In this document: piece after piece, positions 3,491 to 42,800 of the stretch | Layout of the letters: each line of letters starts with the position of its first letter | Numbering within the stretch: position 1 is the first letter of the stretch | Source: Marsupella aquatica | Lineage: Eukaryota > Plantae > Marchantiophyta | NCBI GenBank assembly: GCA_973895155.1 | Contig: OZ316894.1 | Span: forward strand, 13,370,828-13,434,827 | DNA length: 64,000 nucleotides | Direction of reading: 5' to 3' | Position numbers and translations under genes: made by a program | Notes under the pieces: generated by a model | Told to the model about the DNA's origin: nothing | Databases searched by the model: none | Seen by the model: only the letters and a program-made list of their open reading frames with translations

Positions 3491-15327
<11,837 letters not shown>

Positions 15328-17908
15328 CGTTTCGCCTTCCTTCAACCTACAGAGATCACACAGGTTAAACCAGAATGTAACCCTGTGATGAAAGTTCACG
15401 AATCACAAACTTTGACGTTACTGTTGCACTTCTCATACATCAGAAACAGTCTTCAGAAAGTGTAACAAAGAGAACCACAAGAAGCGAGGGGATTTGCATG
15501 TGAAAGTCGCTAATGCCCGAAGAGAACAACAGGGAGAACCACACACAGCGTATCGAGCTGACGCCAATTGTGAGTTCATCTAACGAGGCTCATGCCACCT
15601 TGTAGAGACAGTTGCAACATTAAAACATCAGGCATTCCTCGAGAACTCAACATTGTATGCCTAGCTGCAACATCTCGTCCCACTGAAGTGATTGACCATC
15701 AAACATTTATTATCAATGTCGCCTACAAACCTCCCTATACGAATAAAACTAAACGAGAAGATAAACGTCGATTACCTTTGCTCACCAAGCTCGTGGATGC
15801 ACAATAGTCGATGGTAACACAATTCAAAGCGGCCAAGATCAAGCTACACGATTCCCCCGTGAGCTCGCCCTGTCGCATTGTCCTATTTTGCTGGAGGGGC
15901 TCTCGAAGGATGTCCACCGGACAAACTAGGAAAATCGTCCACGCTCGTCACATGTGGAGTTTATCCAAAGGAACTCCGGCCACTGCACAAAAGTCACAAT
16001 TTCGCTCAGCAACTCAAAACAAATCTCAAACATGATATACTCAATCGCAATGGCAACGGAGCACGAGCAAAGCATTGTATTCGCGATCTCCTTATCTCGG
16101 CTTAGCCAGGAATTTTCTACAACCATCCCATAGCCCTTCCGAAGGAGGTCACGATCATGTATCGAGTGGCCCCTAACACAACGGAAGGTTCCTTCCAACA
16201 TTATTGTTGACCAACAGAAGTTTCCTCGCTATGCGTCAAGAAAACGCACGGACCCGAACAACATCGCTACCTTAACATGAGTACAGACAGGGCCACACAG
16301 GACTGTACAATAGGCTGGCTCGCTCTACAAAGAAACTCTTGTATGTCGAACAAGTCAGCATAACATTGAAGATGTAACCAGCTCGGAAAAGAACCTAGAA
16401 CTCGGGAAAAATTCAATACTACAATGTTATCAAAGCTAGATTACCCATGCTCGAGGGAACCACTTCTGTGCTGCACGTCAGGTAGTCAACCGAAGGAAAC
16501 AAAAAGACAGAAATTCTGTAGCAATGCAGCAGATCAAGTATGCGCTCACTATGCAATACAAATAACGAAAAGAACCTGAGAAATGCTAATTCGTGGACGC
16601 AGCGTATGTAGCAATCACAACTACAGTTCAAAAAGCAAATTCTGAATTCTGAAGTAATAGACTAAATTCAACACCACCGTCGTAAATCAAGACAAGCGCC
16701 ACAGCATCTGGATATCCGACTCCGTTTGAGTATCGATGTACCAAAGCTACACCTTACAGCAGCATTTGGTGATGCGAGGCTAGCGCAAGGCAATTCCGCG
16801 TCTGTAATTGCGGAACGGAAAATACAGGAAGGAACAGCACTCAGCTGCTCGAGCCAATTTGCGACCGAAACAACGACGCATTTTTTCTCTGCTACTAACA
16901 GTATAACCAATCAACCCTGTACCTCAGATTAACACTCCACCAACGCTAAAAGCTCCAAGTCACAGTCGAAGTTGGCGAACAGACCAATTTCGTAGAGAAC
17001 TGCTTATACTCAGTACTGAGGACAGGTCCCGGCTCTGAAGAAACATGATAGGTGAAAAGGGGGAAGGGAGTAAGCCAATCCGTTCTGTTCTCGATGACGC
17101 AAACGTGATTCACGATTCCGTCGGATGTTTGACGATCGACACCCAAACTTCTCGCATGCCAACCAATCTTGCTACAGAAGGACCAATCGCCCGATGAAAC
17201 TCGAGCAGTATATTTCAATCTCAGTCACTTAGCCAAGGCAGGAGTTTAGAGCACCACCTACCCAGTAATGATCGTGCCCGAAAGTTTAGTTGATTCCGTA
17301 ACTATCGACCAAAAACCGACAACACCTCAATTCACCAACAATCTCTTCTCTCCAGTTCTGTCCTGTGCACAACAGCGAAGCCCGTGTCCAAAACGAAAAG
17401 CGAAACTTGAGGAGTAACGAGACTCGTTTCCAATCCTTCCTCTGCGCCAATGCTACGGACCACGGAAGAAGGGTGGGCGTCAGAGGTACGAAACAATCCG
17501 AGAAAACATCACCAGAAGTCTACCCTTGCCAACGTCCAAGGGTAGCAAATCGAATAATGTAGTGATAAAAACTCTTTCAAATATCAACCGGGTCCCAAGG
17601 GAAATGAAAATGACCAGGCACACTAAGCGTGCTTGCTGCGTCTGCTGTGATTAGGAAGGTAGTAGTAGCCGACGCGCCCATCCGACTGCCAGGGGGTGAA
17701 AGCAGCATTCCGTAGTTGCAGAGCGTGTGGATGTAAGGAGTAGTGATGACGAGGGGAGGTACAGGGACTTCTGATGGGGTGGGTACGCAGCTAGCCAACC
17801 CGCCAATGGATATAAGCAGAAGAAGTAGATAAGTAAATTGTACCGACTGTGTCTCGGTCGTGCATTGGAGGGAATGCGGGTCCCACACCCCCACTTTTTC
17901 TTCCCGGC

Positions 17909-19005: not shown

Positions 19006-20040
19006 CTGGATGCGGGTAAAAAACATGCGGCAGTCCTATTGCTAGCCCGAACAGTCATTCTGCGGGATTGTACCACTTACCAAATATGGACGCTAGTGTC
19101 CCAACGGTCATACCCGACATCGCACTATGGAATGCGCCAAACATCCAACACCAACATCAAGGCCTTGAGCAGCCATCGCTCTTCAGCTGAGAAAAATGCC
19201 ATCACTAGTTACCTCTTCAACTGGGAAAAACTCCATAACTCTTTACCTCTTCAGCTGGTAAAGAGGGCCAAGCGGAGCCATCGGAACTGCCATTGCCATT
19301 GCAATTGCTTCAATTGTCTTGGCCTAGGGAAGCCATTCAGGAAATCAGAGGGCTGTCGTAGGCAACGTGAGCTTCAGGTTGCGCCTCAACTGTATTTCTT
19401 GGTGAGTTCTTGTTGCTCATTATAGTATGGAAAGAAGTCGTATGCCATATTTTGATGTTGGGCACCCTATATGGTTTCCCTGCCAGTTTACTTGGAGAGG
19501 CTCTTTGAGATATTCAGCAAGCCTAGCTTGGATTTTGGTTGTTGTAGAAGCTTCCTCTAGAGTGAACTTAACTTCATTGAGAGATTTTGCATCTTCATTG
19601 CTCAAATTTTGCTTCCTTAGCTCTTCCATGGCTCCAACAAAGCACAACAATGGTGCAAAGCCAAGCATTGACGTGCACTCTACACCAAACCCTCCTCTTG
19701 CCACTATAAAGCAGCCCAAACAAGAACAAGTCACTCTTCCACTGTCTTTGGAGTAGCCAAAAGCGGCAGTGCATTGTCCCACCCGGGCCATACCTGCCAA
19801 GAAGACCACCAGTAAGCGAACCGCAATGAAATAGTAGAGAGAACAGACAAAAGGCTAGGCCAAATATCTAGAGAGACTAAAGGAGGAGAGGAGAGTGCAT
19901 TATATGGCCGACCATCCCAATCACAAAACAATAATGATACTGATTGGGACTCTGATGGTATGATATGTAGACATACAATGATACTTTGCACAATTCTTCA
20001 GTAATTGTGGATTGATTTAATCGAGATGTATGTGGTCAAC

Positions 20041-20100
20041 TACACTACACTACACTACACTACACTACACTACACTACACTACACTACACTACACTACAC
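20041..20100. repeat. (TACAC)12 microsatellite
   Basis: Perfect pentanucleotide run. Confidence 0.98.
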
Positions 20101-21991
20101 CTCAGTTCAGTAGAAGTGGTGCATGAGGCCGGATTTCAAACATTGGTATTGTGATAGTACAGTGTTGCTATTTTGTCAAGGTTGTTTCACAATTTTGTGA
20201 ATCACAGTTGAAATGTGGCAATTTGATTCTCTAAATTGCATTTTTGCGTTTGCCAAACTGTGATAATGGGATCCAGGGACGGTTAATGATATGGTATGTT
20301 CAATCACCGTGAACCAGGATGAGACAAACAATTGGGTGAATTATCACTGAACATCATGCATAACACACCCCTGCCGGTAGTCAAACATCAAAATGTGGAA
20401 ATGCACTACGAGCATTCATTGATTTATTGAAAATTATAATGACTATCATTGTATGGAATGATAATAATAGTACACCTGACAATTTAGACACCAGGAAGGC
20501 ACACCGGAAATAATAGTACAACATGCTTTTGCCTTCCCAACTTGCTCTACCCTGCTGGTAATTACACATGAAAATGTGGATTAATAAAGTGGATTAACAT
20601 TGTAATCAATGAGCACCAACTTTTGGCAATAGCAGCACGAGAATGTGAGTGTAATGGATAACTTGGTGCGCATGATACATGATCGGCGTCCTCTTGGAGA
20701 AATGGCCACGGATGTTTGCCTTGCTATGAGAGAGTATGGGGCATAGCACACTCAATGCTGCTGGCAAAGTTTTCTGTGAGCTGCATGTTGTGAGACTGTA
20801 TTTTATGGGCGCTGTTAATATGCAAGGGATGCCTCATCGATGGCTTTCAGACTCGCCCATTGTATCACTACAATGTTGAGGCCCTGAGGTCCTAGGCAAC
20901 GTGAAGACCTTCCAATAGAGCAAGACCATATTGTCTCCTCTCCTACAAGGTCCTCCGCCTTGCCAAGTTTGTGCCAGGCCGGAGTGTACGCAAGGTGTTG
21001 CAACTCCACCAGCAGAGGTTAGAGTTGCCAAATTATTACGTATTCCTCCATGTTGCTCGGTGAGTGCCAAGATTCCTACTTCCCCTCATGAGAAACTCAT
21101 CCTTCAAGCCAATATGCAAGCGGTGGGACTGGAATTCCTCTTTAACCTACCGTGGGACATAACTACTACATGGATCCCTATTCACGGATTTCATTGCTAG
21201 ATCCCGGCCATGAACTCACCAATATCAGGGCAATGGACAAGTGATGTAATTTCAAAGGCTTATCAGGTAGTGCTGATGGGGCGCCAATGTGTGATGGAAA
21301 TAGTGAGTTCAAACCATTTGTTGAGACCCAATTCACATCAGGTTGGGCCCGACCTCCATGACAGGAAACAGGAAATAGTGATGATCATAACAGGAAAAAT
21401 AGTTGAACAAAACAGGAGACTTGGTACTATCATTCACAAAAAACGGCTTAATTTTGGACCAAACCAAAGAGGTCAAATTCAACATAAACTCAAAAAGATG
21501 GGGAAAATGACAATTATCGGAAGACGCCTTTACTAGCGCTTAGTCCTAACCAAGCGTTTGATACCGTTACAAAATATCATTAACAAAATACCCGCTCACC
21601 ATCTACCGGAATGATCAGAGGATAATGGTTTATAAGGCAAGAAAAGGTCATCCTTGAGAATGCATGCGAAAGAAATCCACACGTTCAGACCTAGAAACTA
21701 CAAACTGCAACCAAGTAAGAAAATGGAGTCTAGCGCCGGGCGCTAACAAAACTGAAGGCCAAGTGACGATTTAATACAAACAAATCTCCGTTACCCGTAC
21801 AATGAAATTTACACATCCGTAAAATTGTAAAAACAAATTAAGTTTTATGTGCAACCCACAAAAGATTGAGCCATGTTGAAAAGAAACCAAATGTTGTTTA
21901 CTAGCGCCGGGCGCTAACCAAAACAAAGTTACCGTTACGAAACGACAAGTCCTACATACCCGTTGAACGTAAACTAGAATACTAAGCCTTA

Positions 21992-24900
21992 CTATAAACC
22001 ATCAGCATTTTGCCTCCCTAGAATATAACGCAGTTCCGCAATGGTAAGAATTGGTTGGCTTGGGAGGATATTGTCCACAAGATCAAGCTTGCAGATAACT
22101 TTGTAAACCCAGTACAAGTGTTTACATGGCATGAAAGGTTTCCCTCGAGAATGTCGACGAAAGAAATCTTCACAAGAGCAACAAGGGAAAATGCAAATTT
22201 GCACCCAGTAAGTATTTGCAGTTCATAAATGTGCATTTGTGCGTATCTGGAATCGATTCCCGTATGAATTTCCCGATGAAACTTCCATAGTTTTGATCAA
22301 AGTCATTGTTTCTTTCGTTGCTGATTCAATCCTTTTATGATATTCCTGAGTGAGATTTGATCTAGAGCTCATCGCACGCCGTTTCTCATTCGAAAACGGA
22401 TGTTAACTTGTGCAAGATCGATCTTTTCAGGAAAAACATCAATGTTGATTCTCAGTTCAAATGGAGAAGGACAACGTGAAACAACACCTCCTCTCGAGAC
22501 TTCAATGCCCTGCTCTTGAAGGAAATTTAACTCCAGACTTGAAAGATGAGTGCCTTTCTATACTGGCAAAAAGTCTGGGCAAGTAGGGAGGCTCACAATA
22601 CCTCGACAAGGGCGGCTCTTCCAGCAATCACGAGTGGGGCAGAACCAGACAAGCTCTGGATGGTGTTCACCTCTGAATAAGTTGTAACCTTTGACGACTA
22701 TTCCGACAACCCCTGCATTTGAAGGATATCCGACCTTCTTAATTTGATTATGACACTCATCTCGATCACAACTTCCAGACAACGTCCCATTACACTGTGG
22801 TCCAGCACCGTGTCTGGAAACTCTCCGCAGATGCCAAGACCCGGGTACAACGTCCACTTCAAAAAGCAAAGTGTCTACAGGAATGAATGGAGTGGTGTTC
22901 GGAGCACTTTTTGGAACTTCGGAAGATTGAGTGACATGATGGGAAACTGGAGAGCCACTTTCAGACAAATCGATAATTGGATTCGAAGGAGGAGTTCTAA
23001 GTGTCGGAATGTGCTCAAACTCGGATGAGTTCAAATTCTCCTCTTGCAACCTCGGGTGTTTGGTGTAGTTATGAGAACTGTGTCATGTCGATGGGAGTCT
23101 TGTGGAGAGACGTTCCCGGTTGCCGGACCTTTTCTTTTCATAGACTTTGTCACAAAATCCCCATTCAACGGAGAATCCCTCTCCAAATTAAATTCTGCTG
23201 CATTTGCGAGTAACATATTAGAGGCTTCTTCGAAGAGTTTCGGGGACCCTGCCTGGTCAGCCGAACGAAAAGTCAATTCAAACACTGTTGGACCAGTACC
23301 CCGATGGAGCCCTTCACGATATGCTATATAGGCTGCTATTTGTGAGATTGCTCTGTTGTGATCGGTCTTACATCCTTCGAACAAACCAACTGTTTTCTTT
23401 CCCTGCCATGCTTTCATGATTCCATGAACAGCTTCAGAACCAGAGCAATTGGGAATCATGAAAAGAGTTTTGTCAAATTCAGTACAATATATCGAATAAA
23501 AAATAAAGCGGAACTTCAAAATGGGCGGACGAAAGGTATGAATGTTTTTCATTATGATTGTGAAGATTGAAGACGCTATCAAGCTATTCGTACGTTAGCG
23601 CCCGGCGCTGGCAAAAAACATGAGTAAAGAGCACAATTAGAAAAGGGAGATTAATACTAGCGCCTGGCGCTAGTATACATTGACTCACCAAACGTATGAA
23701 ATTTCCCCACTGACGCCACCTCACAACCCACCAAGCGATCCATCCTTGCAACATTCTAAGTTTCCCAGGAATACAATTTCCAGATCTCCACCATGAATCA
23801 ATCTCTCGTGAAACCCTGTAGGCTTCCACAAATGAAGCGGCATTGCGCAACTTGTCCCAAAGGATTCGATGTTCAGCACGTTTTTCTTCAAGTACTCCTT
23901 CGATAGAGTGCCGATGCAAAGACTGATAAAAGTGGAATGCATCCGATCGCTCTCTCTCCGGGTTTGGATGGCCGTCAAAGAAGACATTCCTAACCGCTAT
24001 CCATCCTGCCTGAGCATTATCCGCCATGAAACCATGGATTTCCACACCCTTTAAACCGTTCTCCAAAGCGACTTCGATCATCAACCTCCAAGCTTTCTCA
24101 AGCAATGCAGTGTCCTCTGCTTTGAGTTCACAAGTAAATATTGTGCACAAAGCTTGATAGTTATGGTCATACACATGTGCACTAAAAGTACTCCATTCTT
24201 TGGACATCCTTTTCATCACGTCAAAGCTCACCCATGCTCCTTCTAGAGGCCCCCCTTTCTTCATCTGACGCAGTAAATCTACTCCCGATCCATGACCTTT
24301 GATAGTCATTTTGAAAATATGTGCTCTATCACCTTTACAGCCCTGCCCAGGAAGAAGATATCTTTAGAGAAAAGGAAACGTAACATTCTTCTGCATGTGA
24401 ACCAGATATTCCAAATCACCTCGACCAACCTGATCTTTACGAACGCTCTTAAATAACGCAGAAAACTTCTGAGGCCTTGAAACGAGCATAAGTGATTTCC
24501 AGATTTCTGATTCTTCTAGCTTTGAAATGTCATCCACAGACTCACCTATGGCATCCATTAAAGATCCAATGATCTCATTTTTCAAAACGCACGGTGTAGA
24601 AGAAGGATACTTCTCATGCTGTCTCTGTATTTCTTCTATTGCTATTTTCTCAGCACTTCTAGACCAGACCTTCCGACATGGATGGTTGTGCACCCCCATA
24701 TGGATTGCAAGTCGTGACATGTGTTTTGTAGTGTCATTTTCAATCAAAACTTGCGGGTACATATAAAACATTTTTGCTGGACAAGACTCAACACAAAATG
24801 GAACTTGAAGGCAATAGCGACAAACAATTCCTCCAGCATCGATCAACCTCCCAGGACAATGCTGACCAGAGAGCTTGGGGGTCCCATCCCATCCATTACA

Positions 24901-25719
24901 GTTTCTGACTTGAGTCCTGGTGTAAAACTCACATGCTCTATTTCGGCATTCGAGAGAACCACTACAGCTTACTTTCCCAAACTCCCACGTCTTCTTCGGA
25001 ACAACATTAGCAGAAGTAGGAAAGATTCTAGTTCAGAGGTAGCAGTCCTTGGATCGATCCATGTTTCGCAGACGATCCCCTTTCGAGCCAACACCTTGAA
25101 CAAGTGGAAGCTCAAATATGGTATTCCCATTGTACTCTATAGGTAAGCATTCAACCTGTTTGTGAATGAATGCCTCGGACCTAACAAAGCGCGATAACTC
25201 ACTTTGTCCAGTTGACTTCAACAAGGCATCAAGTGCGCTTCTTCTGTACACAACCAGAACAGGACGAGTTAGAGTGTCTCCATCATCAGACCCCTCCGAC
25301 GCAATCAATACGGGGGGTACCTGGGGCGTCAACAAACTGGTACTGCCGCCCTCCTTCTTGACCTCATCGCCCTTTGAGATTGGTGGAGAACCCTCAGAGC
25401 ATTCAGCATCGGACGTAAGGTCAATCACATCGTGAGCCACCTGAGGCCTCTCCACCTTGACCTGAATGATGTCCCTTAGTTGAATGAAAATCAAGTACTC
25501 CACGCCATATTCGAGATTCCAAACAACGTCCTCCGCTTCAGTATCAAAATGAGCGGGCCCATCGTTCAAAGTTCTGACACTCTAAATATGTTTTCTCGTC
25601 ACCCCAAATCTTCCACACAGGTAATTATCACTAACACATTTCCTATTTTCGGAAATTGACACAGGGATCATCACAACGTCACCTGTGTTCGGACACATTA
25701 TTCGAATAATGCGAGACAT
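21992..25719 (-). pseudogene. MULE-like DDE transposase with N-terminal Cys/His region and C-terminal SWIM zinc finger, disrupted
   Basis: Colinear ORF pieces: C..C/HNHP region (VCRYC...HMGVHNHP), putative D1 WVSFDVMKR, D2 FMADNAQA, (C/D)xxH-like SDAFHF, putative E in SGSEAVH, and SWIM CSCEDF...PCKHLYWV. Several in-frame stops and frameshifts. Confidence 0.7.
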
Positions 25720-27112
25720 TCTAACTCCCCAAAGATAACCGACTACATAACATAATGATACATGGTAAAATGAAGCTAGATTGTATGGTTGAGGGTTTCT
25801 TCTTAATCCAAGTCTCAAACGGAAAGAGCCGTCGAGCGGTTATAGGATCTGTTGGGTACGGATTTTCTTACCGTTCAAGAAACGACAAAACCATCAATTT
25901 GGCGGATAGTTATTGTTGAATTAATTGTTTTGAGGTTGTAACCGACGGGGTAATATAGTAGCGCCAGGCGCTAGCGTTTTCCACATCTCAAAGAGCCCAA
26001 AAATAAACAACAAAAGCAAAGATCAACGGCCATTTTGGTTACTGACACAGGTTAACATCCTACGATAGCTACTCATTATGACAACATTTAAGCTGAAATG
26101 TATCGGGTTTCCTTGGAAATAGCGTCTTATTTATGGCAGACGACAATATTACCCTCTTCTAATATTAAAATTGATCCATTTGAGCTCGCGTAGAAGTTAT
26201 CATAATACTAGCGCCAGGCGCTATCATAAAATTGATAAAAATATCAAGATCTAATGGTCATTATTTATTGAAACTCGCAGATTTTGGGTCCAAACATCTA
26301 AGCCATTTTGAAGTGTCTTGTTACTAGCGTCGGGCGCTATTATTGAAATCTACACATTTAAGCCCTATTTGAGACTCAAAGAAAAATAGCGCCTGGCACT
26401 TTCATAAAATTGATAGAAATAAAAGTTGTTTATTACAAAAAAAATCTCGCTTCAGTCCAATCATTCGCATGATTTTTTAGTACAATGTTACTAGCGTCAG
26501 GCGCTATTATTAAAATCCTTCATTTCAAGATATATTTTAGTCTAGCATTATAATAGCGCCAGGCGCTAATATTAGATCGAAGTAGAATATTGACATAAAC
26601 GGTCTTTTTAAACGGTAACTTTGACCGTTTATCGTTACAATTTAGAATGAATTCCTGGATAAATATATTCACGAGTACCTATAAACGAGTTAAAATGTGA
26701 CAAGTGTCAACCTTTAGTAGGTCTGCTTTTGGATGCTCGTGCTTTTCGATGTGTACTTGTCATACATGTCGGTCTGCCACAGGGTATATCAGAGAAGATC
26801 TTTTTGCGATAGTGTCTTCCTTGATCGTTAGAACGACCTCTGCGCCCATTTAGGGTCATCATCAATCATTCAATTCGTCCATATTAGTACAGCACCACAA
26901 GAAACGTTGCATCACGCGAGAAGCACGTTGCAGTGCGGGTTCCCCGTGTGTGTGCATCTTAAACAAACATGGAGAATCATTCTCCTGGCCATTCTGAAAC
27001 ATCCGAGTCCTCATTCTCCGGATCAGTTTATACTCGGAGAGTCACTCGTTCGTCTGCATCAAACTCTTTGTGAAACATTAGTCAGGCGATTCCAAAGTCA
27101 AAACGAGGCATC

Positions 27113-30100
27113 ATGGAGTCTTACGGAGATTTTGCGATGGAGGACGGGGGCGAGGGAGTTCTGTCCATGGATGCTGTGATCAAGAAATATGCAATGTTGT
27201 TTGGAGTTGATTTCAGAGGGGAGAAGAAAGAGCCGCCGCATATCCCTCTTTGTCGGCTTGTTCACATGGAAATCGTTCGGACTCTACAGAAAAATAGTGC
27301 ATCTATCGATAAGCTCAAGGATTTGTTTCGGAGCTTTGGGTACAACTCTTCAATTGGGATGCGGTTTTACGTTCAGCCCACGGATTCAGAAGGAGTCGTT
27401 CAATTCTGCACGCCTGAAATTTGGGAGACCTGGGATGCTGTTTGGGTTGCCCATAATGACTTGTTTGAAGCAAAATGTGCTACTGATCCAGATTTCCACA
27501 TTCTGAAGGATAAGATGTTCTGTGTTCTATGTTCTATGTCTGGGAATCATTGACTCTACTCGTGGACCCAAGTAACAAATGAGAATCCAAACAATATCAA
27601 GTACCATCTACGTGTTCAATGCACTGTTTTTAAGGGAGATCGAGGTTCTCTAGTTGAGCTTGAAGTGGCTATGCACACGGTGAACCAGTAAGTATTCCTC
27701 AAGTTGCATAAACGCTATTGAATTTGGTCGATTGCGCTTGATTTTTGCAAGGTTAGTTAGCGCCAGGCGCTAATATTTGCCATTATATCTTACAGGTTAG
27801 GGCAAGCTGTGGTGGAACCATTGTGGATTCTCGATGCCGATAGAATCAATCGGATTTTAACTCATGACTTGGAGGCCTACAAGCCGATCATCGACCCCGG
27901 CAGCTTCAAGCGATTCCAAACTGTTCGTGCCAAGACAAGAAAGGGGTCTTGGTATACCAAGCAGATGCCATTGGAAGCATTGGTTTACATCTTGTGTGAA
28001 AACAAGATTAAGTCGTATTCACTTCAATTTAAGCTTGACTTGGCTGCTGCAACAAGTGAAGGTCGCCCGTGGTCATCTGAAGAGACTGGTAAGCGGTATG
28101 CTACCATGATGAAGGAGGCAACGAAGGAGTAGAGCACAAAGACATCCAAGATTACCCCCCTTATAAGCCCAGAGTTTGGTGATTTTCTGTCAACTTGTGC
28201 AGAAATGTACATTCTTACGGAGAGGAACAAACGAGAAAAGAAGCCGGACTCTGTAGTTTGTACAATGGACCGCGCGCGTCTGTTCACTACTGTCTCCTAC
28301 TTGGATCCACAACTGCACTGTACTCTTCTTGTCGCTCACTGTACACCCAAGCTCAAAAAACAATTTTACCATCCCCCAAGTGTGAATGATGACCCTATTA
28401 AACAGTGGTGTCATACATGGCACATGTGGAGTTTGGTGGAAGGAATTGCAATTGCAATGTTATAGACATCTCTTTTGCAAGTCCAGTCGATCCTACCTGC
28501 TGATTGTCTAACGCTAGGAGGAGTGGAGACGTTTGAAGCTTTGGTCTTGAACATCACCAATGATTTCAAGACATACGGTGAAACAGTGAAGGCAAAGTTT
28601 TTTAGCACAATTTGGCAGTCCAAGTACGGAGACAAGGAAGACTATACAATTCGCAACCAGAAGCGAGCCAAGAGATATCTGTATCGCTTCTACATGGTGA
28701 TGGAGACCAGTTCTCCAGATTATTTTTGGGCTTACCCTCCTGCATTCCAGAAATGGTCCGTTCTAGAGGGGGATGCTTTTAGCGAAGTTTATTCAATGTA
28801 CCCTGCCAAAGGGGATGTTCCACCACGTGACATTTCATTGTGGGAGATAACCCACTGTCCATGGTATCTTGACACAGATTAGTGGGACACCCCTTTCGAT
28901 GAAGCTGAAAAGGATGCATTTCTGAAATTATCAAAGTCTTTAGTGCCTCAGAAAGTTCTCTCTGAAATGAAACAAGGTTTATCGGAAGATGTAGATGCCT
29001 CGGCAAGCGAGCTGTAGAAACATTGCGAAACAGAAGTTTTGCATGTAGACAGGAGTCAAAAACCCCGGGCGAAAGCAAAAGTAGACACTGGAGTAACCAG
29101 CCCATCAACGAGATCCGGGAAGAAACGTGAGATTCTTCTATTTTCCATTGGCACTATGTATTCTCTCTCCACCAGCTTGATTATGTCAGTGACTTTTGAT
29201 GAGCGCTGCAGATCAAGTTGTCTATTTATCAGTTAGCGCCCGACGCTGGTGTCCCTGATGAACAGACTCCTCCCAACACGGAGAAGATGGTGCGACCAGC
29301 AGATGCCACCAGCACGAAGAAAAAGAAAAAGAAATATTTGGATCATGGATTTTCCTCTCGGGATTCTATCGCTTCTACTGGTGTTCAACGAGATGTTGGA
29401 CAGTTCAAGTCTAAGACTTCTAGGCATGTTTTTGTTGAGTCCAGCGTAATGGACTTCTTTGAGAATGGTGTCAAATGTGGAGAAGTGGGTGAAAGACCTA
29501 GTCTTGCTTGGTCTAAGGGAGAAAGGAGTCATAAGAGGAGGAAAGATAAGATCATTTGGAGTTGATGTTGGATTCATTTACCTCCCAACTGGACTGCGCC
29601 CTTCCCTTTTAGAGAAGAAGTCTCCAAAATAGAATTCCCCAGATCACAAAATTGTTGGTTCATTCTTTCGCGCAATGGATCCCTTTCTAGCAGATGATGG
29701 TATATTGGCCATTTGGCATACCGGCGAGTATGATCAGATCTTGCAGGTCATCACCGCGAGCCAGGAGTTCAAAAGTTTCAGTGTGTGAAAACCCTGAACG
29801 TGGTTATGGGAGTTCCAATGTACATGGCCCGAAGTGATTGTCAGGTAAATTCTCTCACTCTTTGTGTTGTCCTTTGTTAGCGCCGAGCGCTAGCTAAAAA
29901 TGTTTTCATATACCCTTCGGTTAAGGGGATATTCTTTGTTAGCGCCTGGCGCTATCCAAAATTCATTGTTATGCCGCGATTGTAATGATTTTCTGGTTGG
30001 ATTGTCGGCATCTTAACAAAGGATTTTGTTGGGATTTCACAGGTTTTCACATTGAGATTGGATCTGTTCACTCGTGTTTCGTCAAAGGTTAAGGTTCCAA

Positions 30101-30621
30101 AGGACCCCAAGTTTTGACCCCTCTCTACAACTGAAGATCCTTCTATCACTAACCTTATTGGTCTCCCGAGTGTGAGGAAGGATCCAACTCCTTCAGCAGC
30201 GTTTGCTGGCAATGGACGCTTGTCCGTTGGGTTCATGCAATCTGTGTTAGAGTTAATCACTCGGCCAGATGATATTGTCATGGACTGGACTGTGGGTTCG
30301 GGAAGTACATTTGTTGCTGGTGACTATTGTGGTCATTTTATTCTTGGTATAGAAAACCGAAAAGAGTTTGTTGAGATTGCGGAAAAGACATGGATGGAGT
30401 TATTGATTCCAAAAGATGTCAGTTCCTCATCTCCCGCTAAAGATGTGGGAAGAAAACAAAAAGATAAAGTTTGCTCTGTCTTAAATTTTGACTCTGAAGA
30501 TGAAGAGGAGGGAGATGATGTTGGAGATGATGCTTCAAGAGGACAAGGAGAGGAAAATGAAGGAAACGAGAAGGAGAGGCATACGATGGAAGAAACAGAA
30601 GATTCAGATTCTTCTGAGTAA
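27113..30621 (+). pseudogene. Spliced, decayed gene: N-terminal ParB/Srx-like domain plus C-terminal beta-class N6A/N4C DNA methyltransferase-like domain
   Basis: N-terminus: HIPLCRL...IDKLKDLFRSFGY...KMF...SGNH(R>stop)LYSW. Introns at 27688-27795 and 29845-30042. Motif-IV region VDVGFIYLPTG (29561-29593) is followed by FFRAMDPFLADDGILAIW, and motif I/II region GRLSVGFMQSVLELITRPDDIVMDWTVGSGSTFVAG...ILGIE lies at 30214-30354. Motif IV precedes motif I, the beta-class order. Acidic tail follows. Confidence 0.62.
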
Positions 30622-31338
30622 TGCCCGTAAGCTACTTCACTTTACATTATGATTCTGGAACTGTCCCATTTTCATTTTCAATTCTAATGTGGTTCCGTTC
30701 CTCTTCCAGATCGGAGTGGAATCTTCAAGAACGTTTTGATCTTCGGAGGAAATACTCGAAAAAAGTTCTCGTTTCTCCTCAAAAGCCTTTCGTGTTGCCC
30801 TCGTATGCAGAATATGCTACACGCAAAGAAGAACAGAGGAGAACACTTACTTGGGAGAGTAAGGGCTTAAGGTTAAGGAGAGGTTCAGATAGGAAATTCA
30901 TCCATCAGCCTTTACTCAACGATGGACCTAAAGCGAATTTATAGATGATGAAGCTGAGTCTACCGATAGGTCTAGCAGTAGCAAGTCCGAGTCTTCTGAC
31001 TTGGAGTAGGTTGAGTGTGAATTTCTAAGGTTTTCTTTGGAACCTTGTACTAGCGCCCGACGCTATTAAACTGGATGTTTGGATCTGAGCCTTTAAAAGA
31101 GATAGACGCACCCGAAGTCTCTTTCCTGAGTGCATATTTGTGCAGATATCAGAAATGCATGTACTCGTATAGTTGTACGGTGAATAATTATACCTTCTGT
31201 ATGTACGTATTTTTGTTTGTGGTTGATATGATTGTTTGGACTCTCTCAAAGTGTAGTGTTTGTTCAACTTCAGGTTTGTTCAACTTTGTGTTTGTTCAAC
31301 CCCAAACGCATTTCTCCCTTTCATTTATGTGAGGCGCC

Positions 31339-31440
31339 GACTCACCTCTTCCCTTCGTTTCGTTTGTGCATTGCCCAGACTCACCTCATCCCTTTGTTTC
31401 ATTTCTGGTCTGCCCGAACTCACCTCTTCTCTTCTCCTTG
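31339..31440. repeat. Three ~39-bp-spaced copies of actcacctc(a/t)tc.ctt just upstream of an ORF
   Basis: gactcacctcttccctt, gactcacctcatccctt, aactcacctcttctctt. Confidence 0.7.
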
Positions 31441-31470
31441 AGTTTGGCATCCGTTGTTTCCATCGACTCC

Positions 31471-31917
31471 ATGGATAAGGGGAAGCAAATAGTGAAATTG
31501 GAGAGCCGCAATCCGCCAACGGCAATGGTTTGGAGGTCGATTAGAGATCCGGGTTTAGATTTGACTCCGTCTTTTACGCAATGCCCAGAGACGTCGACCG
31601 AGAGGAACAGGTTGTGGCTGGCCCCGGATGAGGGTATTAGCCACAAAACTGGACACCTTCCATCGCGTGATCCTTTGCCTCCACTTCCTTTCTGAGAGAG
31701 GTTCTCTGTTCACGACCCAGATCCTTCCAATGTGTATCGGGTGGAAAGGACAGCTTTTTTCAGAGACATCCAAGCAGACACCGGACGTGTGAGCTTTTCA
31801 GATTCGAACATCCCGAACGACCGGAGTCGGAGTCGCTATCCCGGACCTCTTTTTTTCTGGATCGAGAGGATGGGTTTCGACAGGATGAGGATAGGTCAAA
31901 GCTGGATTGGACGATGA
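31471..31917 (+). pseudogene. Small unknown ORF (MDKGKQIV...) inside the MULE-like element, with one internal TGA
   Basis: ATG at 31471. The frame continues past TGA 31693-31695 into the 31732-31917 ORF. Flanked by palindrome copies at 31051 and 31965. Confidence 0.35.
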
Positions 31918-33560
31918 CTGCATGTCTTCTACGTCCTAGAGAATGTGGATTCCTTCCTCGACACTAGCGCCTGGCGCTAGCTTTCATCTCATCGTTGGAG
32001 TCGTTCATGAGTTTGATTCATGTCATCTTTTTGAACGGGGGCTCCGGTTCGGCCGAGTTAGCTTTATTGCTCCTTCTATTTTATTATTGCATTAGGTTTT
32101 TTGAGTATGTTATTAGGGTTATTTCTTTTTCTCGAAGGTTATGGACTTTTATTACCTTCTGGATATCAATGTAATTTTTTTTTCAAGTAGTGTGTGTCGC
32201 TAGCGCCTGGCGCTACTAATATATGTTCTATTCTCCTCCACAATTATGTAAACCCGCCTCTGTAAAATTGTGTCTTTCAACTCTCTTTTTTCTAGTGTCG
32301 TCCAAATATGCTGCAAATACTATTAGTGGTTATTTTATTGTTGAAATTGGTTGTTTCTTGTTACTGGAATCTGGTTCCTGTCAGTTGGAAACCCTCTGAC
32401 AAAACAATCTTTAAGCTTGATCCGATGGATTTGGTCTTACCGAGCCAGCCAATTTTGAATGTCGGAGAACTCCAGTTCATCATAGGAAGGGAGAATCTGC
32501 ATGGTTTATAGGAATTTGGATCATTCGACGATACATTGAACGGACATTTTGTTAATGTTGTTTTGAACGGCAACAAACTCTTGGTTAGCGCTCGACGCTA
32601 GTAAAACTTGTCTTTCCATAATTGCTGTATAGAACTCTAAACATATTGGAGTTCCTATTGAAATTGGTCTCCTTTTTTGTCCGTAATTATGTCATCTTTT
32701 GTGTATGCTAGTACCAAATCTCCTGTTTTGTTCCTCTCTTTGTCCTGTTATGATTGTTACTATTTTTTGTTTCCTGTCACGGGGAAAAACCTCATCAGGT
32801 TGAAAGAGGAAGAATGGATGGCCAATTGAGCATTGTGAAGATACTAAACATTTGAAGCCCCTTTTGGAGTTCCTTATTCCAAACCTGCTCCACAAAGACC
32901 TACTAGAGTGACACTAGCGCTTGCCACTACCATTATAGTTTCATTGAAATGAAAGAGGAAGATCAATCCCAGAGCTTATAACACATTACCATTACCATTA
33001 CATTACCAATTTGGCAAAGATCCTAGGAGACATAGTTATGACGTTAGTTGAGAGGCTTGTACTAGGGCAAAATCCTATGTACATTGCTCCTTACGTAGCA
33101 CATTTGTATTGGAGTGAGGACTGACTCACTGCCATGAAGCAACAGGCTTTCCGGGGAGCATTTCCTTGGATTGCAATTCATTCTCCCAAGAGGAAAGTTG
33201 GGATTGAGGCCCACCTGACTGAATCACCATCTGCTGCTGAAAAGAGGTATTTGAGTTGTGACCATTCATCAACACACAAAAGGAGTTATCTGTCAATGTT
33301 AACTGTTGAACCTCCTGCAGGGATTTTGGATAATGCGCTCATTGATTGTGTAATGTCCATTTTAACTTTTGAGAGAAATGATATTTTGAGTGAGTTGGAT
33401 TGCTTGAAGTTGTGTTTCAACTTATTATGTGAGTGTGACATACATAACAAAGCATGCATCCCCTACGGCTGGTCAGTTGGCATACAAGGAGGCAAAGGAA
33501 AGTCGGTCAATTCTCAGTCCTATTAATAATTGTAGACCTACCAGTGTGAGCGTCACAGGT

Positions 33561-33909: not shown

Positions 33910-33924
33910 ATGGCCAAATGAAAA

Positions 33925-34410
33925 AGTTTTTTTTTCAAAATTTTGGTTTTTTTTGTTTTTTTCCCCACTTTTTTTTGGTCCGTACGCCCCATCTCGGCGA
34001 GGCCAGCTGAGATAGGGAAAAAAATTTCAAATTTTTTTTTCGGGAAATTTTTTGGTCTTTTTTTTGTGGATTTTTTTTTGGTCCGTACGCCCATCTCGGC
34101 AAGGTCAGCCGAGATTGAATCAACCTCGGCTGCCCAGCTGAGATGAGCGGAAGTTCGAAGGCCCCATCTCAACTCCTCAGCTGAGATTCTAAAATTTTTG
34201 AGATAACTGATATCAGTTATCAACCACTGATAACTGATGATGTTATGTATCCCATGCAAATTGGATGGCTTGCTGATCTCCCTTAGATTGACCTCCATCC
34301 AATGGCACTGAATCTCCATCGAGGTTGAATTGAGATGTAAATGAGGGGAGGGGGCTCCACAATTATAGTGGGTAATTTTGAGATAGGGAATAGTGTTTAG
34401 GAAAACAGCC
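33925..34410. repeat. TIR/subterminal-like region of a DNA transposon: T-tracts, repeated ggtccgtacgccc(c)atctcggc and cagctgagat, and a 20-bp palindrome
   Basis: Two copies of ttttttggtccgtacgccc(c)atctcggc; perfect palindrome gataactgatatcagttatc at 34202-34221. Confidence 0.5.
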
Positions 34411-36565: not shown

Positions 36566-38131
36566 TTTTTTTCAATTTATTTAGATAATGACCACGAAAA
36601 CCCCGTGGCAAGGAAAAGCAGGAAGAATCTCACCACACCAATTCAGCAACCCCCAACCGGGAGGGCAAAGACAACAAGTGGTGAAGGCCCAATAGACCAG
36701 GCTGTCAACCCTATACTCGTGAACCACACATATCACCGAGCGAAAGCATAACTCACTAACTACATGCCCCAATGCTTAGCAGAGTTCTCAGCTAGATGTA
36801 ATCCAGATCTGTCGGCTGTTCAGCCAAACTATTCTTCCCGTATAAGTATCTCCTTCACTTGTAGCAATCTTGTGTGTCGCCTAGTTGGGGGCAAACACAG
36901 TCCCACCGCCAATGCATGGTCAGCCGCTTTTGAGAGAGTAAAACGAAGATCAAATGTCCTACAGCCATTGGACTGAAACATATGCACATTCCTACTCTGC
37001 CATAAGGACCAAATAATCTGATAGAAAATAAATAGCTTGGCAACTATGCTGTGGTCTTTCTTGGCTCAAGTAGCCTATCCGAGTAATCAGTAAAGGTACC
37101 TGAAAACAAGCTGCAACTAGTGACCACTTAACGTCGCTTGGCATGAGCACATTGCACAAAAAGATGGGAAATAGTTTCTACTTCTCCACTACACAGTTTA
37201 CAGTACCCCTTCTCCTTTATCAATGCGTCTGGCTCGCACACCAGTAAAGAGACCTGAAGCCAGTATCCTCCAAATAAACGTCTTAGCATGGGAGGACAGG
37301 TTAGAGTGCCACAATCCACTCCAACCTGCATTCCATTCACCTTTTGTCTCGTGCTATCCCAAGTATGATTCAGGCTTTTGTAGTCTCTAACAGGGGGGCG
37401 AATCAGCATGTACGCCCTCAGATTAGAGATCTTGAATATATTGATAGGATCATGCCTGTCAGCCCATCTCCAACAACGGGGACCAGTGACATAATTCATC
37501 CTGCAACCATCTATTGCACTGACCTTCCTTAAGAACTCCCTCCAACAAGCTTTCTCAAACAAAGTAAAGTCGCAAAGGTGTTCTAGTTGCTCATATAGAT
37601 TGCGCCATTCATTCCGTTTGGTAGACCATAAATCCTGGATGCCTCTAATACCCAGTCGGCCACACAACACAGTAACCACTTCAATTGGTATTGGGCCAAG
37701 ATTGGAAACCGATGAGAGAGCGGAGAGTGTCCATGGTATTCCACCTACCAGGCATCATATCACTGGGTGAAAAGATCAGGTGGGAACAAAGCTGAACCCA
37801 CGCTTTCCATAGTCCTCTAGTATATGCGATTCCATTAAAGGACCGAGGGCTACATAACAACATTTTATCCTGGAAGGAGTACTTATTCATGCGTATCCAC
37901 TTATAATTCATCCAACCCGCTAGTTTCAGATTTTCTGCAAAGAGACATGCCCATTCTGTATCCGGGCAATCCAAAGCCCTAGTGAACCATTTGGATAATA
38001 GAGTGTCGGAGTGGCTGCAAAAATCCTTTAGCCCGAGTCCCCCCTCCAGCCTAGGTCTGGCCATTCTAGCCCATGAAACAAGAGGGATTCTCTTGCCCCC
38101 TTCCGGAGTGTATCCCCACAAAAAGTCCCGG
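36566..38131 (-). mobile_element. LINE-A (L1-type) 3' part: ORF2 C-terminus, zf-RVT, 3' UTR and A-tail
   Basis: RDFLWG..GGKRIPLVSW..RPRLEGGLGLKDF, CKLCSGEVETISHLFVQC and IFYQIIWSLWQSRN to a stop at ~36829; aataaattgaaaaaaa tail. Homologous to 51190-52525. Confidence 0.88.
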
Positions 38132-39724
38132 TGTCGTCGGGGAAAATATTTGACAAATGAAGTGGAGTATGCTGGATCAGGTCGACTTGCTTTAAGTTCA
38201 GCTTGAGATGTATTAGTTATTTGGATGAGTAGTGAAAGAAACAAAACTGAGTTGAAGTTGAAAGGTAGTAAGACAAAAGAGGAATAAAAGAGCTATGGCT
38301 TTTAAAAAGCTTTTTGAGGGGAATTTTCTCCCGTTGACACGTGGTTGAATATGAGACTTTGAAGTTCATAAGGGCCATGAGGATGGAACGGTGATGCCTG
38401 CGATGGAGGTTTGGGTGAAAAGAAGAGAGAAATGGTCAAATGTGGGTGTGTGTCGTGGTGGTTATTGTTAGAAGACTTGGTCGATCTGTCAGGCGATGGG
38501 GGCAAAGTAGGTGGGATACTGAGGTTGGGGAAGGAATTCTGGAGGCGTATCGTGTATAGTTAGAGTGGAAGAAAGAAGGGAGACGACGAGCTTGGGCTGA
38601 GGAGTTATTTTGTTGTTATTATTATGGAGAAGATTGAAGTTTTTGAGTGAAGCGGAAACAATTGGCTGATGAAGGGCAGAAGAGACTGAAAACTTCTGGT
38701 GGCAAATAGAGTTGTTTGCGAGGCAGTTGCGGGAATGAATTTATTGAAGTTCAGGAGAGAAACAGCCAGATGTTTTCTTTTGAGGTGAGAAAAAATTGGA
38801 TCAAAGTCTGATAGAAAATGAGAATGGATCGTGAGAGGAATCGGGAAGTGTAGTGGAGAAGATTGCGTGTTGGAATACGGAGGACGATAGTACTATGAAG
38901 AATTGAAGAGGGTTACAAGAAAAGAGGAAAGGTAAATGAAATAGAGAACAAAAGGCAAAAATGAGGAATGGGAGGCTAAGGAGATCGATAAGGGAATTCT
39001 GAGGAATGCCCAAAAGGAGTTGAGAGCTATTAAAGAATGCTAGGGACGGACTGATGAGCTATCCACTGAATTAACGGAGCTGAATAAGTGTGCTGGCTGT
39101 ACTCGGGTCTGGAGGAGGGAAAGTTAGGATAGATTGATGGTTAAATAGGATGCTAAGTAGATTACTCCTTATTGAGGGAGTGCAACTATCGTGGTAAGAA
39201 GTGAAATCGAATTCAGTGTGGCTCGGAGAAGGAAGAAAATCTGGAACCTATTAGGGTTGGGAACGCAAGGAAAGAAGGGTGAAGAAGGAGGAAGATCCTT
39301 GTTTCCTCGGTAAACTTTACACTGGATTCTTGGTTTCCATAAGGCAAGTAAATTCAGAGTAGCAAGCGCATTAGGAGAAGAACTTGATTACACCCCGGAG
39401 TGTAATTGGTGATTAGAAGAAGCAAACACGACTGTAGCAGAAAAAGATTTCAAGTAAGCAATCGACCTGGGAGGACATCAGATCAGGCTGGTGGTGCAAA
39501 GACAAAGGGATTACTCATACAGGAAGAGAATTGGGTGGAGCAAGGATCGAGAAGGGCGGTGGAAGTGCCCTGGTGAGAGGTGGTGAAGAACGATTGAGCC
39601 TAGGGACTCGCTGACTTATGGAGATTACAAGATATAGTAAGCACATTACCCCTGTGGGTGGAAGGCGATCACAGTGATCGATAGTAGACTTACCAAAAAG
39701 TGTCGCACAAAGGACATACTTAAG

Positions 39725-39841
39725 CCCCATCTCATCCAATCGCCCCAAGGAATCCCCATCTCATCCAATCGCCCCAAGGAATCCCCAGTGCGACATTGGC
39801 GACCATACTGGGGATTCCTTGGGGCGATTGGATGAGATGGG
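39725..39841. repeat. 29-bp tandem duplication plus perfect 35-bp inverted repeat (39755-39789 / 39807-39841) around the Ty3 PBS
   Basis: cccatctcatccaatcgccccaaggaatccccagt, a 17-nt loop, then actggggattccttggggcgattggatgagatggg. Confidence 0.95.
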
Positions 39842-42800
39842 TGACTATGATGAAGTTGATCGGATCTCAAGCATCGTCATGTTGATGATGAGAACCATAA
39901 GGAAGGAAGAGCTTGAGGCGGAAAGGGCGAACAGGGAAGCGAATAGAACTACTCGGTGTCTCCAAGAGGTTCTGAAGGAGAATGGGCAGTTCAATGGGAG
40001 AAATGTGACAAGCTACCTTAAGTCTTACTTGACAAAAGGAGCTGTCTACAAGTTGGACGAAGGGACGGCGGTGAAAGAGTTCATGGTGCTGGTTGAGAAG
40101 GAGTTGAGTTCGACGGTGTGGACCATCGTTGAGTCAGCTAAGGGCTGGGATGACTTCGACCATAAGATGAAAGAGGAGTTCCAAGCAAAGGATGCTGATC
40201 GGGTCACGCAGGCTACCTTCTTGGATTGGGTGAATGATAGGAACAAGAAGCTGAAGGGGCCGCAAGAGCTCCTAAGGGAGTTCAAGAGAAAGGTGTCTCG
40301 GTTATCGAAGCGGGATGTGGGAATCATCAAGTTGCAGCGCTCGACGCTCTTCTTGAGGGCAGCCGATGAGGACCTTCGAGAGGAGCTTGAGAATGCGATG
40401 GAGTTGCTGGAACCTTCGAGAGTTACCTTGTCTAACGACTGGAACCAAATTGAGAAAGCGGTGTCAAAAGTGAGCAATTGACACCGGCGGCAAGAGCTAG
40501 ACAAGGAGGCTACCACTCTCGACCTAAGGCCGCCGGAACTGACATTGAGGAAAGGGAAGCGAGAACCAGCGAAGGATGAGATCAAACCATCGATGGATGA
40601 TCTCGCGGAAATGATGCAGAACTTGAAGATCTTGGTGGCACATGCAGTCGAGAATCCAAAACCAAGGGTTGCGAGTGCTCCCAAGCGGAAGCGAGAGTTG
40701 CAGAGTTGGCCATGCATATGATGCAACAACAAAGAGCATGACAAACGGGAGTTCCTGGACCTAAGGGAAGCTGCGGATAAAGGGCTGATCAAGTTCATTG
40801 GTGAAGTTGGTCAGAAAAAGATATTGTTTGCCGATACTGAGGAGCCGATTCCATTCAACTCCAACAAGGGAGGCATGAAGGCTTTGGCTGAGAAGCGAGC
40901 TGGGAAGCGAGTCAAAGAGGCTTCCTCTTTGCACCTGGAAGCGAATGTTTACAATGTGGAGTTGGATGGCCCCGTGATGGAAACAGACAAGTTTTACAAG
41001 CGCTTGGCGGATCTGGTGCAAGAGAGATCCGGATGGAGTGACCCGGTGCTGATCAATGCGATAACAATTGAGGTTGGGGCTAGTTGGGATGCCTCGGTCA
41101 AGTCAAAAAGGAAGAAAACCGACAAGGATGACACTTCGTCTCAATCAGGGGAACGAGAGAGGTGGGATACTAAGACAAGGAAAGAAGGGTTAGGTTCAAA
41201 GAAGAGGAAATGAGCGAGAAAGAGCCAGAGAAAGGGAAACCGATCAGGAAGGACCCGGGCTGGGTGCTTGGCAGGGATGTTGACCAGGCCATGTACCCGG
41301 AGGTTGTAGCTGAGAAGTTCTGGAGCCAACGGGCTCAAGGGTTTACCAATGCTGAGTTCTTTGGCAGGATGAGGCGGGAGATCCAGGAAGCGATCTTGGA
41401 GAGATCCAAGAGGAAACGGATTTACAAAGAGGGCCCTCACACCTTGATGGGGGAGGCTGGCAAGACGGAAATTGGGAGTTTCTGAACTTACACTGCTGGG
41501 GCATCCATGGGTCCAGGTAGCAAGCTTGCTGGCCCCGAAGAGTCAGACTTGGGGAAACCAAAGAGGGTCAAGTCCCTTGGAGGGGAGCTGATGGACGATG
41601 AGTTCTTTGATGCGGAAGAGGAGCTCATGGACTTGAACGATGAGTTCTTCGATGCGGAAGAGGAGCTCATGGGAACCGGAAGCGAAGCTGAGTCTGTGGC
41701 AAACAGGGACCCGACTGAAGGGAAAGAGCAAGAAGGCATTACCGCACAATCGAGGACCATTCATGTCATGCAATGAAAGGAAACGATTATGCTTACCGAG
41801 ATGGATATTGGGCTTGAGCAAGTCCGGAGAGCGAGTGCCAGTTAGAAGGAATGGAAGGCAAGGTGCGGGCACTCATTGATACTGGCTTGGAGATCAACTT
41901 GATGGATCCAAAGGTGTTTCAAAAGGGGAATTGGCCGGTGGATAATGAGTTGCTTTGGAGTGTGAACTCAGTGAGTTTGATGAAGGACTATCTTTGGGGC
42001 GGATGTCCGAATGTGATGGTGAAGTTCGGGAATGTCAAGCAGGCTTGTAACATTTTTGTTCATGAGCACTTGTCGTTTCCAGTGATACTAGGCATGTCGT
42101 TCATCACTGAATGGAGGATGGAGACGAAGGTTCTGGACGATACTACCTTCATGGTGAAGGTTCGGAGCAAAGATGGGAAAGAGGTGGTTCAATTTCCAGC
42201 TATTTTACTTGGAAACGAGAGGAATAGGAAAGGGTTGAGGACTCAGAGTGCTGACTCTGGTCCAGGTCCGGAAAACAACTTGGCACTTTGCTGAAAAGAG
42301 TGGATCGGTGGAGTGCTTGTTCCTTAGCTCCTTGTGAAGGGGAAAACACGATGGATAATGGAGAGGATGAGCCACTCAAATGTGCGGAGTCTAACTTGGG
42401 AAGGGACAAGCTGGAGAAGGAATTGGAAAGGCAGTACTCGTCTATGGTCGTGCTTGTATACTTGAGTACCAAATACAAGATGGTCGACAAGAAGGTGAGG
42501 CCGGCGGCGATACCTTTGCCGGACGATGCGATGGAGGTTATAGATCGAGCGAGATTGGAACCTAGGCTGAGGCCAACTGATCGGATAGGGCATAAGTTTA
42601 CTCAAGAGAGTTTGGCAAAGCTTAAGATTGGTTCGGATGGGTTACTTACGGAGGTGGAGCAAGTGGCATTTCAAAAGATGATAATGGAGCATGGCAAGGC
42701 ATTCTCGTTTTTGATTGAGGAGATTGGTTGTGCGGATCCGAGATGGTCATCTTTACTGTCCCTCATGTTCCGTGGGATCTGAAACCGATTTCGGTTCCAC

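Follow-up and report, generated by a model that had tools for sequence, protein, structure and literature searches.

How a eukaryotic DNA transposon might recognise itself by means of a ParB-like protein is the question raised by a locus in the liverwort Marsupella aquatica, which lies in a 64,000-nucleotide stretch of contig OZ316894.1 (assembly GCA_973895155.1, positions 13,370,828 to 13,434,827 of the forward strand), here called the window. The original prediction, made from the letters of this stretch, saw at 21280..32930 a new system in which a Mutator-like transposon carries, beside its transposase gene, a second gene that joins a ParB-like domain to a beta-class amino-methyltransferase fold, together with an array of 15-bp palindromes by which the element would mark or recognise itself. 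Our own proposal, which leans in part on predicted structures, is that this ParB-like accessory protein binds the element's own palindromes and coats the element, and that its methyltransferase half is dead; we put the chances of this at about even.

The palindrome is TAGCGYCNGRCGCTA, of which 18 copies with at most two mismatches (13 exact, 17 with at most one) lie within 21280-32930 and none in the other 52 kb of the window, the confinement that had been predicted. The mean expected by chance is 0.03, with a maximum of 1 in 30 Markov shuffles, and an unbiased count of gapped palindromes also ranks this word first, AGCG-N5-CGCT occurring 17 times and the best unrelated word five times. Further matches with three mismatches, two of them outside 21280-32930 and others at 32188 and 32915, are no more than chance would give and were discounted. 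The palindrome has a 7-1-7 architecture, and its copies are placed as follows.

Palindromes TAGCGYCNGRCGCTA, first nine: starts at 21731, 21902, 23596, 23658, 25959, 26209, 26325, 26387 and 26492
Palindromes TAGCGYCNGRCGCTA, last nine: starts at 26554, 27758, 29234, 29878, 29940, 31051, 31965, 32201 and 32586

Two of these sites lie 3' of the transposase stop, two in the transposase intron and six between the two genes, while on the accessory side there is one in intron 1, one straddling the presumed intron 2 acceptor, two in intron 3, three in the 3' region and one in the right terminal repeat. None of the 18 is wholly within an exon, though exons make up 58% of the element, in keeping with the predicted concentration in introns, intergenic DNA and ends. 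All six spacings below 120 bp (62, 116, 62, 105, 62 and 62) fall no more than 1 bp from a whole number of 10.5-bp helical turns, and since two of the 62-bp pairs have a duplicated spacer (28/47 identical), three 62-bp pairs are independent, with unrelated spacers. Three degenerate copies of an 85-bp unit, at spacings of 178 and 167, occupy 26159-26588 in the intergenic region, and part of the intergenic palindrome cluster arose by duplication. The fixed CpGs of the sites are intact in 35 of 36 cases, which is no proof of protection because decayed sites are harder to detect. Variants that break the consensus among copies were found at 0 of 60 positions in four canonical sites and at 37 of 346 outside but at 3 of 80 in the 10-bp flanks, counts that at the palindromes are confounded by the use of motif-seeded contigs.

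The sites belong to one Mutator-like insertion, 21346-32792, which has CATCAGGTTG on either side. The two genes were predicted to form a single element and they do, within boundaries that the terminal inverted repeats (TIRs) and the target-site duplication now set more narrowly than 21280..32930.

21336..21345: left target-site duplication CATCAGGTTG, 10 bp, for which a 9-bp reading is possible too
21346..21616, plus strand: left TIR, its first 10 bases unmatched at the right end, with a decayed palindrome at about 21534
21992..25719, minus strand: decayed Mutator-like transposase gene, read by eye and without a Pfam match
25720..26968: intergenic region shared by the head-to-head genes, with 6 palindromes
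32519..32792, minus strand: right TIR, containing the palindrome at 32586
32793..32802: right target-site duplication CATCAGGTTG, 10 bp

Mutator-like elements are defined by long TIRs, often of hundreds of bases, and by a target duplication of 8-11 bp (PMC6446971), and the present element has both, its TIRs being about 260 bp long and identical at 198 of 256 aligned bases (77%). The outermost 10 bases of the TIRs (21346-21355 and 32783-32792) differ from one another, and the inverted repeat begins with CC(A/G)TGACAGG. Because both genes share these TIRs and the CATCAGGTTG duplication, the possibility that they are unrelated adjacent insertions was rejected for this copy. The element is repeated in the genome: in four public runs from two studies, single-copy contigs identical to the flanks end at its termini, and the summed contig depth across its whole length, including both genes and the spacer, is ~7-90 times that of the right-flank bin, a ratio that comes from separate contigs, none spanning both genes, and is not a copy number. 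The present copy, noted at first as decayed, is dead: both genes are interrupted by stops in frame and by frameshifts, and several of these are absent from other copies. Of the 40 best-supported differences from those copies, this one shows a C-to-T or G-to-A loss in 29, 13 of them at CG (CG background 17%), a pattern that matches what is expected of an element silenced by 5-methylcytosine.

The transposase gene is recognisable by eye. Its N-terminal part is rich in Cys and His, the residues D (SFD), D (MADN) and E (SEAVH) can be picked out, the E following an intron whose donor lies near 23688, DAFH stands where CxxH is expected, and a SWIM-like CxC..CxH is visible at the C-terminal end. Neither the frames nor their read-throughs match Pfam MULE or SWIM, so that the predicted DDE/SWIM transposase stands on visible motifs and not on a profile; with the termini and these motifs in hand, and no profile match, it is called a divergent Mutator-like transposase. 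Past the accessory gene and before the right TIR, 31471-31940 (plus strand) may be a small third gene, starting with MDKGKQIV, in a region that diverged copies cover; it has no Pfam match, and upstream of it, at 31319-31434, are three tandem 39-bp copies with the core ACTCACCTC.

The accessory gene is head-to-head with the transposase gene and spliced, as described originally, and is made up of the following parts.

26969..27687, plus strand: exon 1, with the predicted ParB/Srx-fold domain at ~27137-27691 (IPLCRL...GNH[R]L)
27688..27795, plus strand: intron 1, 108 bp, GT..AG, with one palindrome at 27758
27796..29126, plus strand: exon 2, helical middle region, with 4 in-frame TAG stops
29237..29844, plus strand: exon 3, from a presumed start, with the first (N-terminal) half of the methyltransferase fold, frameshifted
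29845..30042, plus strand: intron 3, GT..AG, with palindromes at 29878 and 29940, 62 bp apart
30043..30618, plus strand: exon 4, S-adenosylmethionine (SAM)-binding half (DWTVGSGST...GIE) and acidic tail

In exon 1 of this copy the Arg codon of GNH[R]L is TGA and there is a three-residue insertion. At 30619-31010 (plus strand) a GT at the apparent stop is followed by an AG at 30710 and a frame that ends FIDDEA...SDLE, and a fifth exon reaching to ~31010 is possible, Riccia gene models having similar closing words. A homologue search with exon 1 gave 77 matches among protein representatives, of which three were spurious and were dropped (two ankyrin proteins and one repetitive nematode protein), and alignments of 67 and 56 proteins (A3 and A9) were built. 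All of the named true relatives are gene models of Riccia sorocarpa. A profile search with the methyltransferase part found 29 proteins; R. sorocarpa models account for 25 of these and lie on contigs of eight different lengths, as expected of a dispersed family. The C-terminal exon query of the first homologue search matched none of the longer proteins, and pattern scans, which are insensitive, found no accessory-gene relative in contigs of viral and prokaryotic genomes and, with the window's own peptides, none in metagenomes. The predicted fusion is real because one Riccia protein, P0083 (R1sor_027256, 1207 aa), carries the N-terminal domain, helical middle and methyltransferase fold in a single chain and is collinear with the window at 27140-29128 and 30040-30441.

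The ParB-like half escapes sequence profiles. Pfam ParBc matches none of the window frames, their read-throughs or the 55 relatives, the N-terminal part gave nothing relevant against PDB sequences, and clusters of the ESM Atlas that pointed to TRAPP for exon 1 were discarded as noise owing to low recognition. Structures were predicted for the relatives P0004 and P0085, not for the window protein. The isolated domain of P0004, the closest relative (~50% identical), was modelled with a pLDDT (predicted local distance difference test) score of 94, and of 48,161 chains compared with it 13 reached Z>=2, of which 12 belong to the ParB/Srx superfamily, with KorB at the top (Z 7.4, root-mean-square deviation (rmsd) 2.8 over 95 residues). 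Among the Foldseek matches listed to rank 31, all are ParB, Noc, KorB, PadC or Srx, the best (E 0.029) being the B. subtilis-type ParB 6sdk. The predicted structures of relatives give the accessory N-terminal domain the ParB/Srx fold, and its nucleotide-binding motif is conserved. In the 906-residue model of a relative, residues 21-392 span nearly the whole of the N-terminal and DNA-binding domains of ParB/Noc, the seven top alignments having Z scores of 7.7-8.1 and an rmsd of 5.0-5.4 in six and 11.7 in one; it is the first part of the exon 2 helical region that aligns, loosely, with the DNA-binding domain. Four residues are well kept in the 56-protein alignment, R53 (47/54), G73 (47/55), R140 of DGNHR (44/52) and N184 (38/42), and by motif position they appear to correspond to R54, G73, R95 and N127, which bind cytidine triphosphate (CTP) in the ParB of M. 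xanthus (PMC13229309).

The methyltransferase half is plain in its fold and degenerate at its catalytic centre. The C-terminal part matches Pfam N6_N4_Mtase above the cut-off (E 2.9e-7), and a profile search matches CcrM in both halves, in the beta order (E 4.6e-4), in an alignment that leaves out motif IV itself; histone H2B rows from the same search were rejected, with E values of ~0.1 or weaker on a basic linker. DWTVGSGST...GIE aligns with motif I and the acidic residue of DpnA and CcrM, and the catalytic region precedes this SAM motif I, as in the beta class. The SAM loop is kept, as DFAGGWG in most Riccia rows and DWTVGxGxT in the window lineage. Motif IV, the position of which was inferred from the strand pattern, reads D[LM][PS][ST][GR] in 22 Riccia rows and YLPTGL in two Logan rows and in the window, where FIYLPTGL is encoded at ~29573-29596 of exon 3. 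Of the 34 rows in the alignment 10 are gapped or misaligned at the motif, and none of the other 24 has [DNS]PP[YFW] or the aromatic residue of DPPY/SPPY that stacks on the target base. In CcrM and N4CMT the target amino group is contacted by D/S and P, with Tyr stacked on the base (PMC10406627). Since two independent Logan proteins have Y for D just as the window does, the loss of the motif is not the decay of a single copy, and these alignments make it most likely that the domain is a pseudo-enzyme, above all in the window lineage. The degenerate motif IV makes self-marking by N4-methylcytosine (4mC) or N6-methyladenine (6mA) unlikely.

A relative with a palindrome of its own came from a scan of metagenome contigs, in which 128 pattern matches led to two loci, L001 and L002. 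The L002 protein is 45-54% identical to the window accessory protein, and its intron 1 has the same position and phase. This intron contains 20 copies of AAGCYYNNRRGCTT with at most two mismatches (14 with at most one; 0.23 expected) at a 20-bp period; the exons of L002 are free of it, and the window motif is absent from the locus. Within intron 1 (L002:335-1152) the array is preceded by repeats rich in AAGCTC/GAGCTT at 420-540. The outer AGC...GCT is common to both palindromes, and a putative recognition helix, picked by eye, reads STKTSKI in the window and KVDAGKL in L002. A different palindrome in the same intron fits, as a pattern in the sequences, family-specific pairs of protein and site, and lends support to the originally predicted idea of self-recognition. 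Marking by 4mC or 6mA is not supported, motif IV being degenerate family-wide and without even the acidic residue in the window lineage.

We therefore return to how such a protein could act. It would bind the 15-bp palindromes as a ParB-like dimer, with TAGCGCCNGGCGCTA as the candidate site, and the helical region after the ParB domain would read the palindrome. Nucleotide binding might then close a sliding clamp, as in bacterial ParB, so that the protein could spread along the element, with the dead methyltransferase fold serving perhaps as a module for dimerisation or DNA contact. The outcome may be relief from host silencing of the VANC kind, or help in bringing the ends together or in transposing. 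The bolder form of this proposal, that eukaryotic DNA transposons have adopted a working ParB-parS clamp which is nucleotide-gated and slides, in which protein and palindrome change together and the dead methyltransferase is structural, is held only tentatively.

Several observations weigh against the protein acting as proposed. No Foldseek match has E<=0.001 and the Pfam and PDB sequence profiles miss ParB; the helix-turn-helix match is loose, with an rmsd above 5 Å and a large helical insertion, and it came from a second look at the hits of Foldseek, being absent from the unbiased search with the long model. At the position of the catalytic E93, 51 of 53 relatives have N. The ParB/Srx fold is also that of Srx, SerK and SbnI, all found in the structure search, which do not bind parS, and of T-dioxygenase activators that have no DNA-binding domain (PMC13229309). 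The second motif is known from a single contig without a transposase, and L001, with 600 bp of upstream DNA and little that is non-coding, has no repeated palindrome. The low variant count of the sites is shared by their 10-bp flanks, and the C-to-T decay means that this copy was not protected for good.

The main rival, a real though lesser possibility, is that the palindromes are sites of the transposase, for pairing of the ends or for self-activation, and that the ParB-like gene serves otherwise. Transposases bind TIRs, and the right TIR holds one site, with a decayed counterpart mirrored in the left, which also tells against our proposal; moreover, the AtMu1 transposase alone binds and activates its own element (bioRxiv 2026.08.24.746577). 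That transposase peaks at the TIRs in the same report, however, whereas 17 of the 18 sites here are internal, and the best-known members of the accessory protein's fold bind palindromes of this kind.

It is improbable that the palindromes work at the RNA level, whether in splicing or as small hairpins, or that they arose as a by-product of repair or slippage and have no protein reader. Five of the sites are intronic and one lies across an inferred acceptor, and the 20-bp tandem array of L002 could be expanded by slippage, but six are in the stretch that separates the two start codons, an asymmetric variant occurs in both orientations and would put a C-A mismatch on the transcribed strand at 29234 and 31051, and the 15-mer and the 62-bp spacing recur amid flanks that are unrelated. 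Least likely, if by little, is the version of the original prediction in which the fusion is an active enzyme, guided by ParB, that writes 4mC or 6mA as a self-tag, since the profile matches, the kept SAM loop, the D retained in Riccia rows and the same idea put forward for Ectocarpus (PMC12477816) are set against 24 of 24 rows without an intact motif IV and Y for D in the window lineage, where active eukaryotic enzymes retain TSPPY (MpDN4MT1, bioRxiv 2021.02.12.428880) or SPPY (N4CMT, PMC10406627).

The bacterial sites parS, NBS and OB are palindromic and of similar length to those of the window. Like ParB, Noc and KorB, the accessory protein is predicted to have a ParB/Srx fold with a nucleotide-binding motif and a helical domain after it; unlike bacterial ParB, to which it is ~10% identical, it has GNHR for GERR and an insert of 55 residues in its N-terminal domain, it is fused to a methyltransferase fold, and no ParA gene accompanies it, the 15 scanned reading frames of the element giving no ParA-type match.

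Among eukaryotic elements the nearest by description is Sola1-1_Ec32 of Ectocarpus, which encodes opposite its transposase an accessory protein of ~1100 aa with a ParB-like and an N4C/N6A methyltransferase domain, as in the window and Riccia P0083; the suggestion made there is that this accessory protein binds its own transposon and modifies it (PMC12477816). Ectocarpus is a brown alga and its element has a Sola transposase, whereas the window is from a liverwort with a Mutator-like one; the description given in that paper, which cites Iyer et al. 2011 for green-algal proteins, names neither a palindrome nor the loss of a catalytic motif, both of which the window family has. ParB-linked adenine methylases from phage loci are also described in algae (Iyer et al. 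2016; PMC4738411). In the Plavaka accessory genes PAG2/PAG3 of the red algae Bostrychia and Chondrus, a ParB-like domain is found with inverted-repeat arrays as its proposed targets, ParB being a protein that binds inverted repeats, and such genes are reported on Mutator elements of Chondrus too (bioRxiv 2025.02.11.637652). As in the window accessory gene, a PF01555 domain is present in these elements, but there one gene joins ParB to a 2-oxoglutarate oxygenase and another joins the methylase to SET, and the repeats are tandem arrays beside the gene, as opposed to a ParB-methyltransferase fusion and single sites spread over the element (bioRxiv 2025.02.11.637652). With the same type of gene and hypothesis published for Ectocarpus and a related one for the Plavaka elements, the locus is not the new system it was first taken for; it is a version of an already proposed class of ParB-type transposon accessory systems.

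Within plants the comparison is with VANDAL21/VANC21 and VANC6 of Arabidopsis, which are likewise Mutator-like, with an accessory gene and a family-specific motif in intron, intergenic and terminal DNA, and whose two motifs differ much as those of the window and L002 do (PMC5735166). The gathering of a family-specific motif in non-coding DNA is found here too, while the accessory protein matches no plant-transposon Pfam family and so falls outside the VANC family. VANC belongs to another protein family with non-palindromic motifs of 8-9 bp and with binding and demethylation demonstrated (PMC5735166), where those of the window are predicted from sequence. The beta-class amino-methyltransferase fold itself is known in eukaryotes from the liverwort MpDN4MT1 (bioRxiv 2021.02.12.428880) and rotifer N4CMT (PMC10406627). 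These are host genes with intact TSPPY/SPPY and demonstrated activity, for which the available descriptions name no ParB domain, and motif IV excludes the window protein from their type.

A literature search confined to main texts, with most subscription papers outside it, found no land-plant element of this type, no such dispersed palindromes and no loss of motif IV; repeats or the loss of a motif may be described in the supplements to the work on Ectocarpus and Bostrychia. To the class the window adds a Mutator-like host element in a land plant and a precise candidate site, dispersed along it and paired in its spacing. It also adds a relative that has a different site, and a ParB nucleotide motif that is conserved where the methylase motif is dead. 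The algal papers, in their main texts, proposed binding and modification with no defined site, for which the window family offers a sharp candidate, and the prediction that the ParB half is active and the methylase half dead changes the proposed mechanism. If true, our proposal would extend transposon self-recognition beyond VANC and provide a family-specific targeting module for plant chromatin; in its bolder form, plant chromatin would gain its first known sliding clamp of the ParB type, and VANC-like self-recognition a second route, unrelated to the first.

The rest of the window holds a host gene and other repeats. A gene with PAS and kinase exons at 3805-15402 (minus strand), probably phototropin-like, has its 5' part ~6 kb from the element. 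To the right are a Gypsy-type long terminal repeat retrotransposon (39678-45638, plus strand) with reverse transcriptase, RNase H and integrase, a non-long terminal repeat retrotransposon (46954-52525, plus strand) with endonuclease and reverse transcriptase, a fragment of a related copy of which is at 37128-38292 (minus strand), and a frame with a GAGA-binding (BBR/BPC-like) domain (55198-55677, plus strand; Pfam E 7.7e-34). Short repeats with CAGCTGAGAT/CTCTTCAGCTG words, T-runs and high contig depth, at 33920-34200 to the right of the element and at 19179-19262, are probably another repeat family, and an (ACTAC)n microsatellite occupies 20039-20100.

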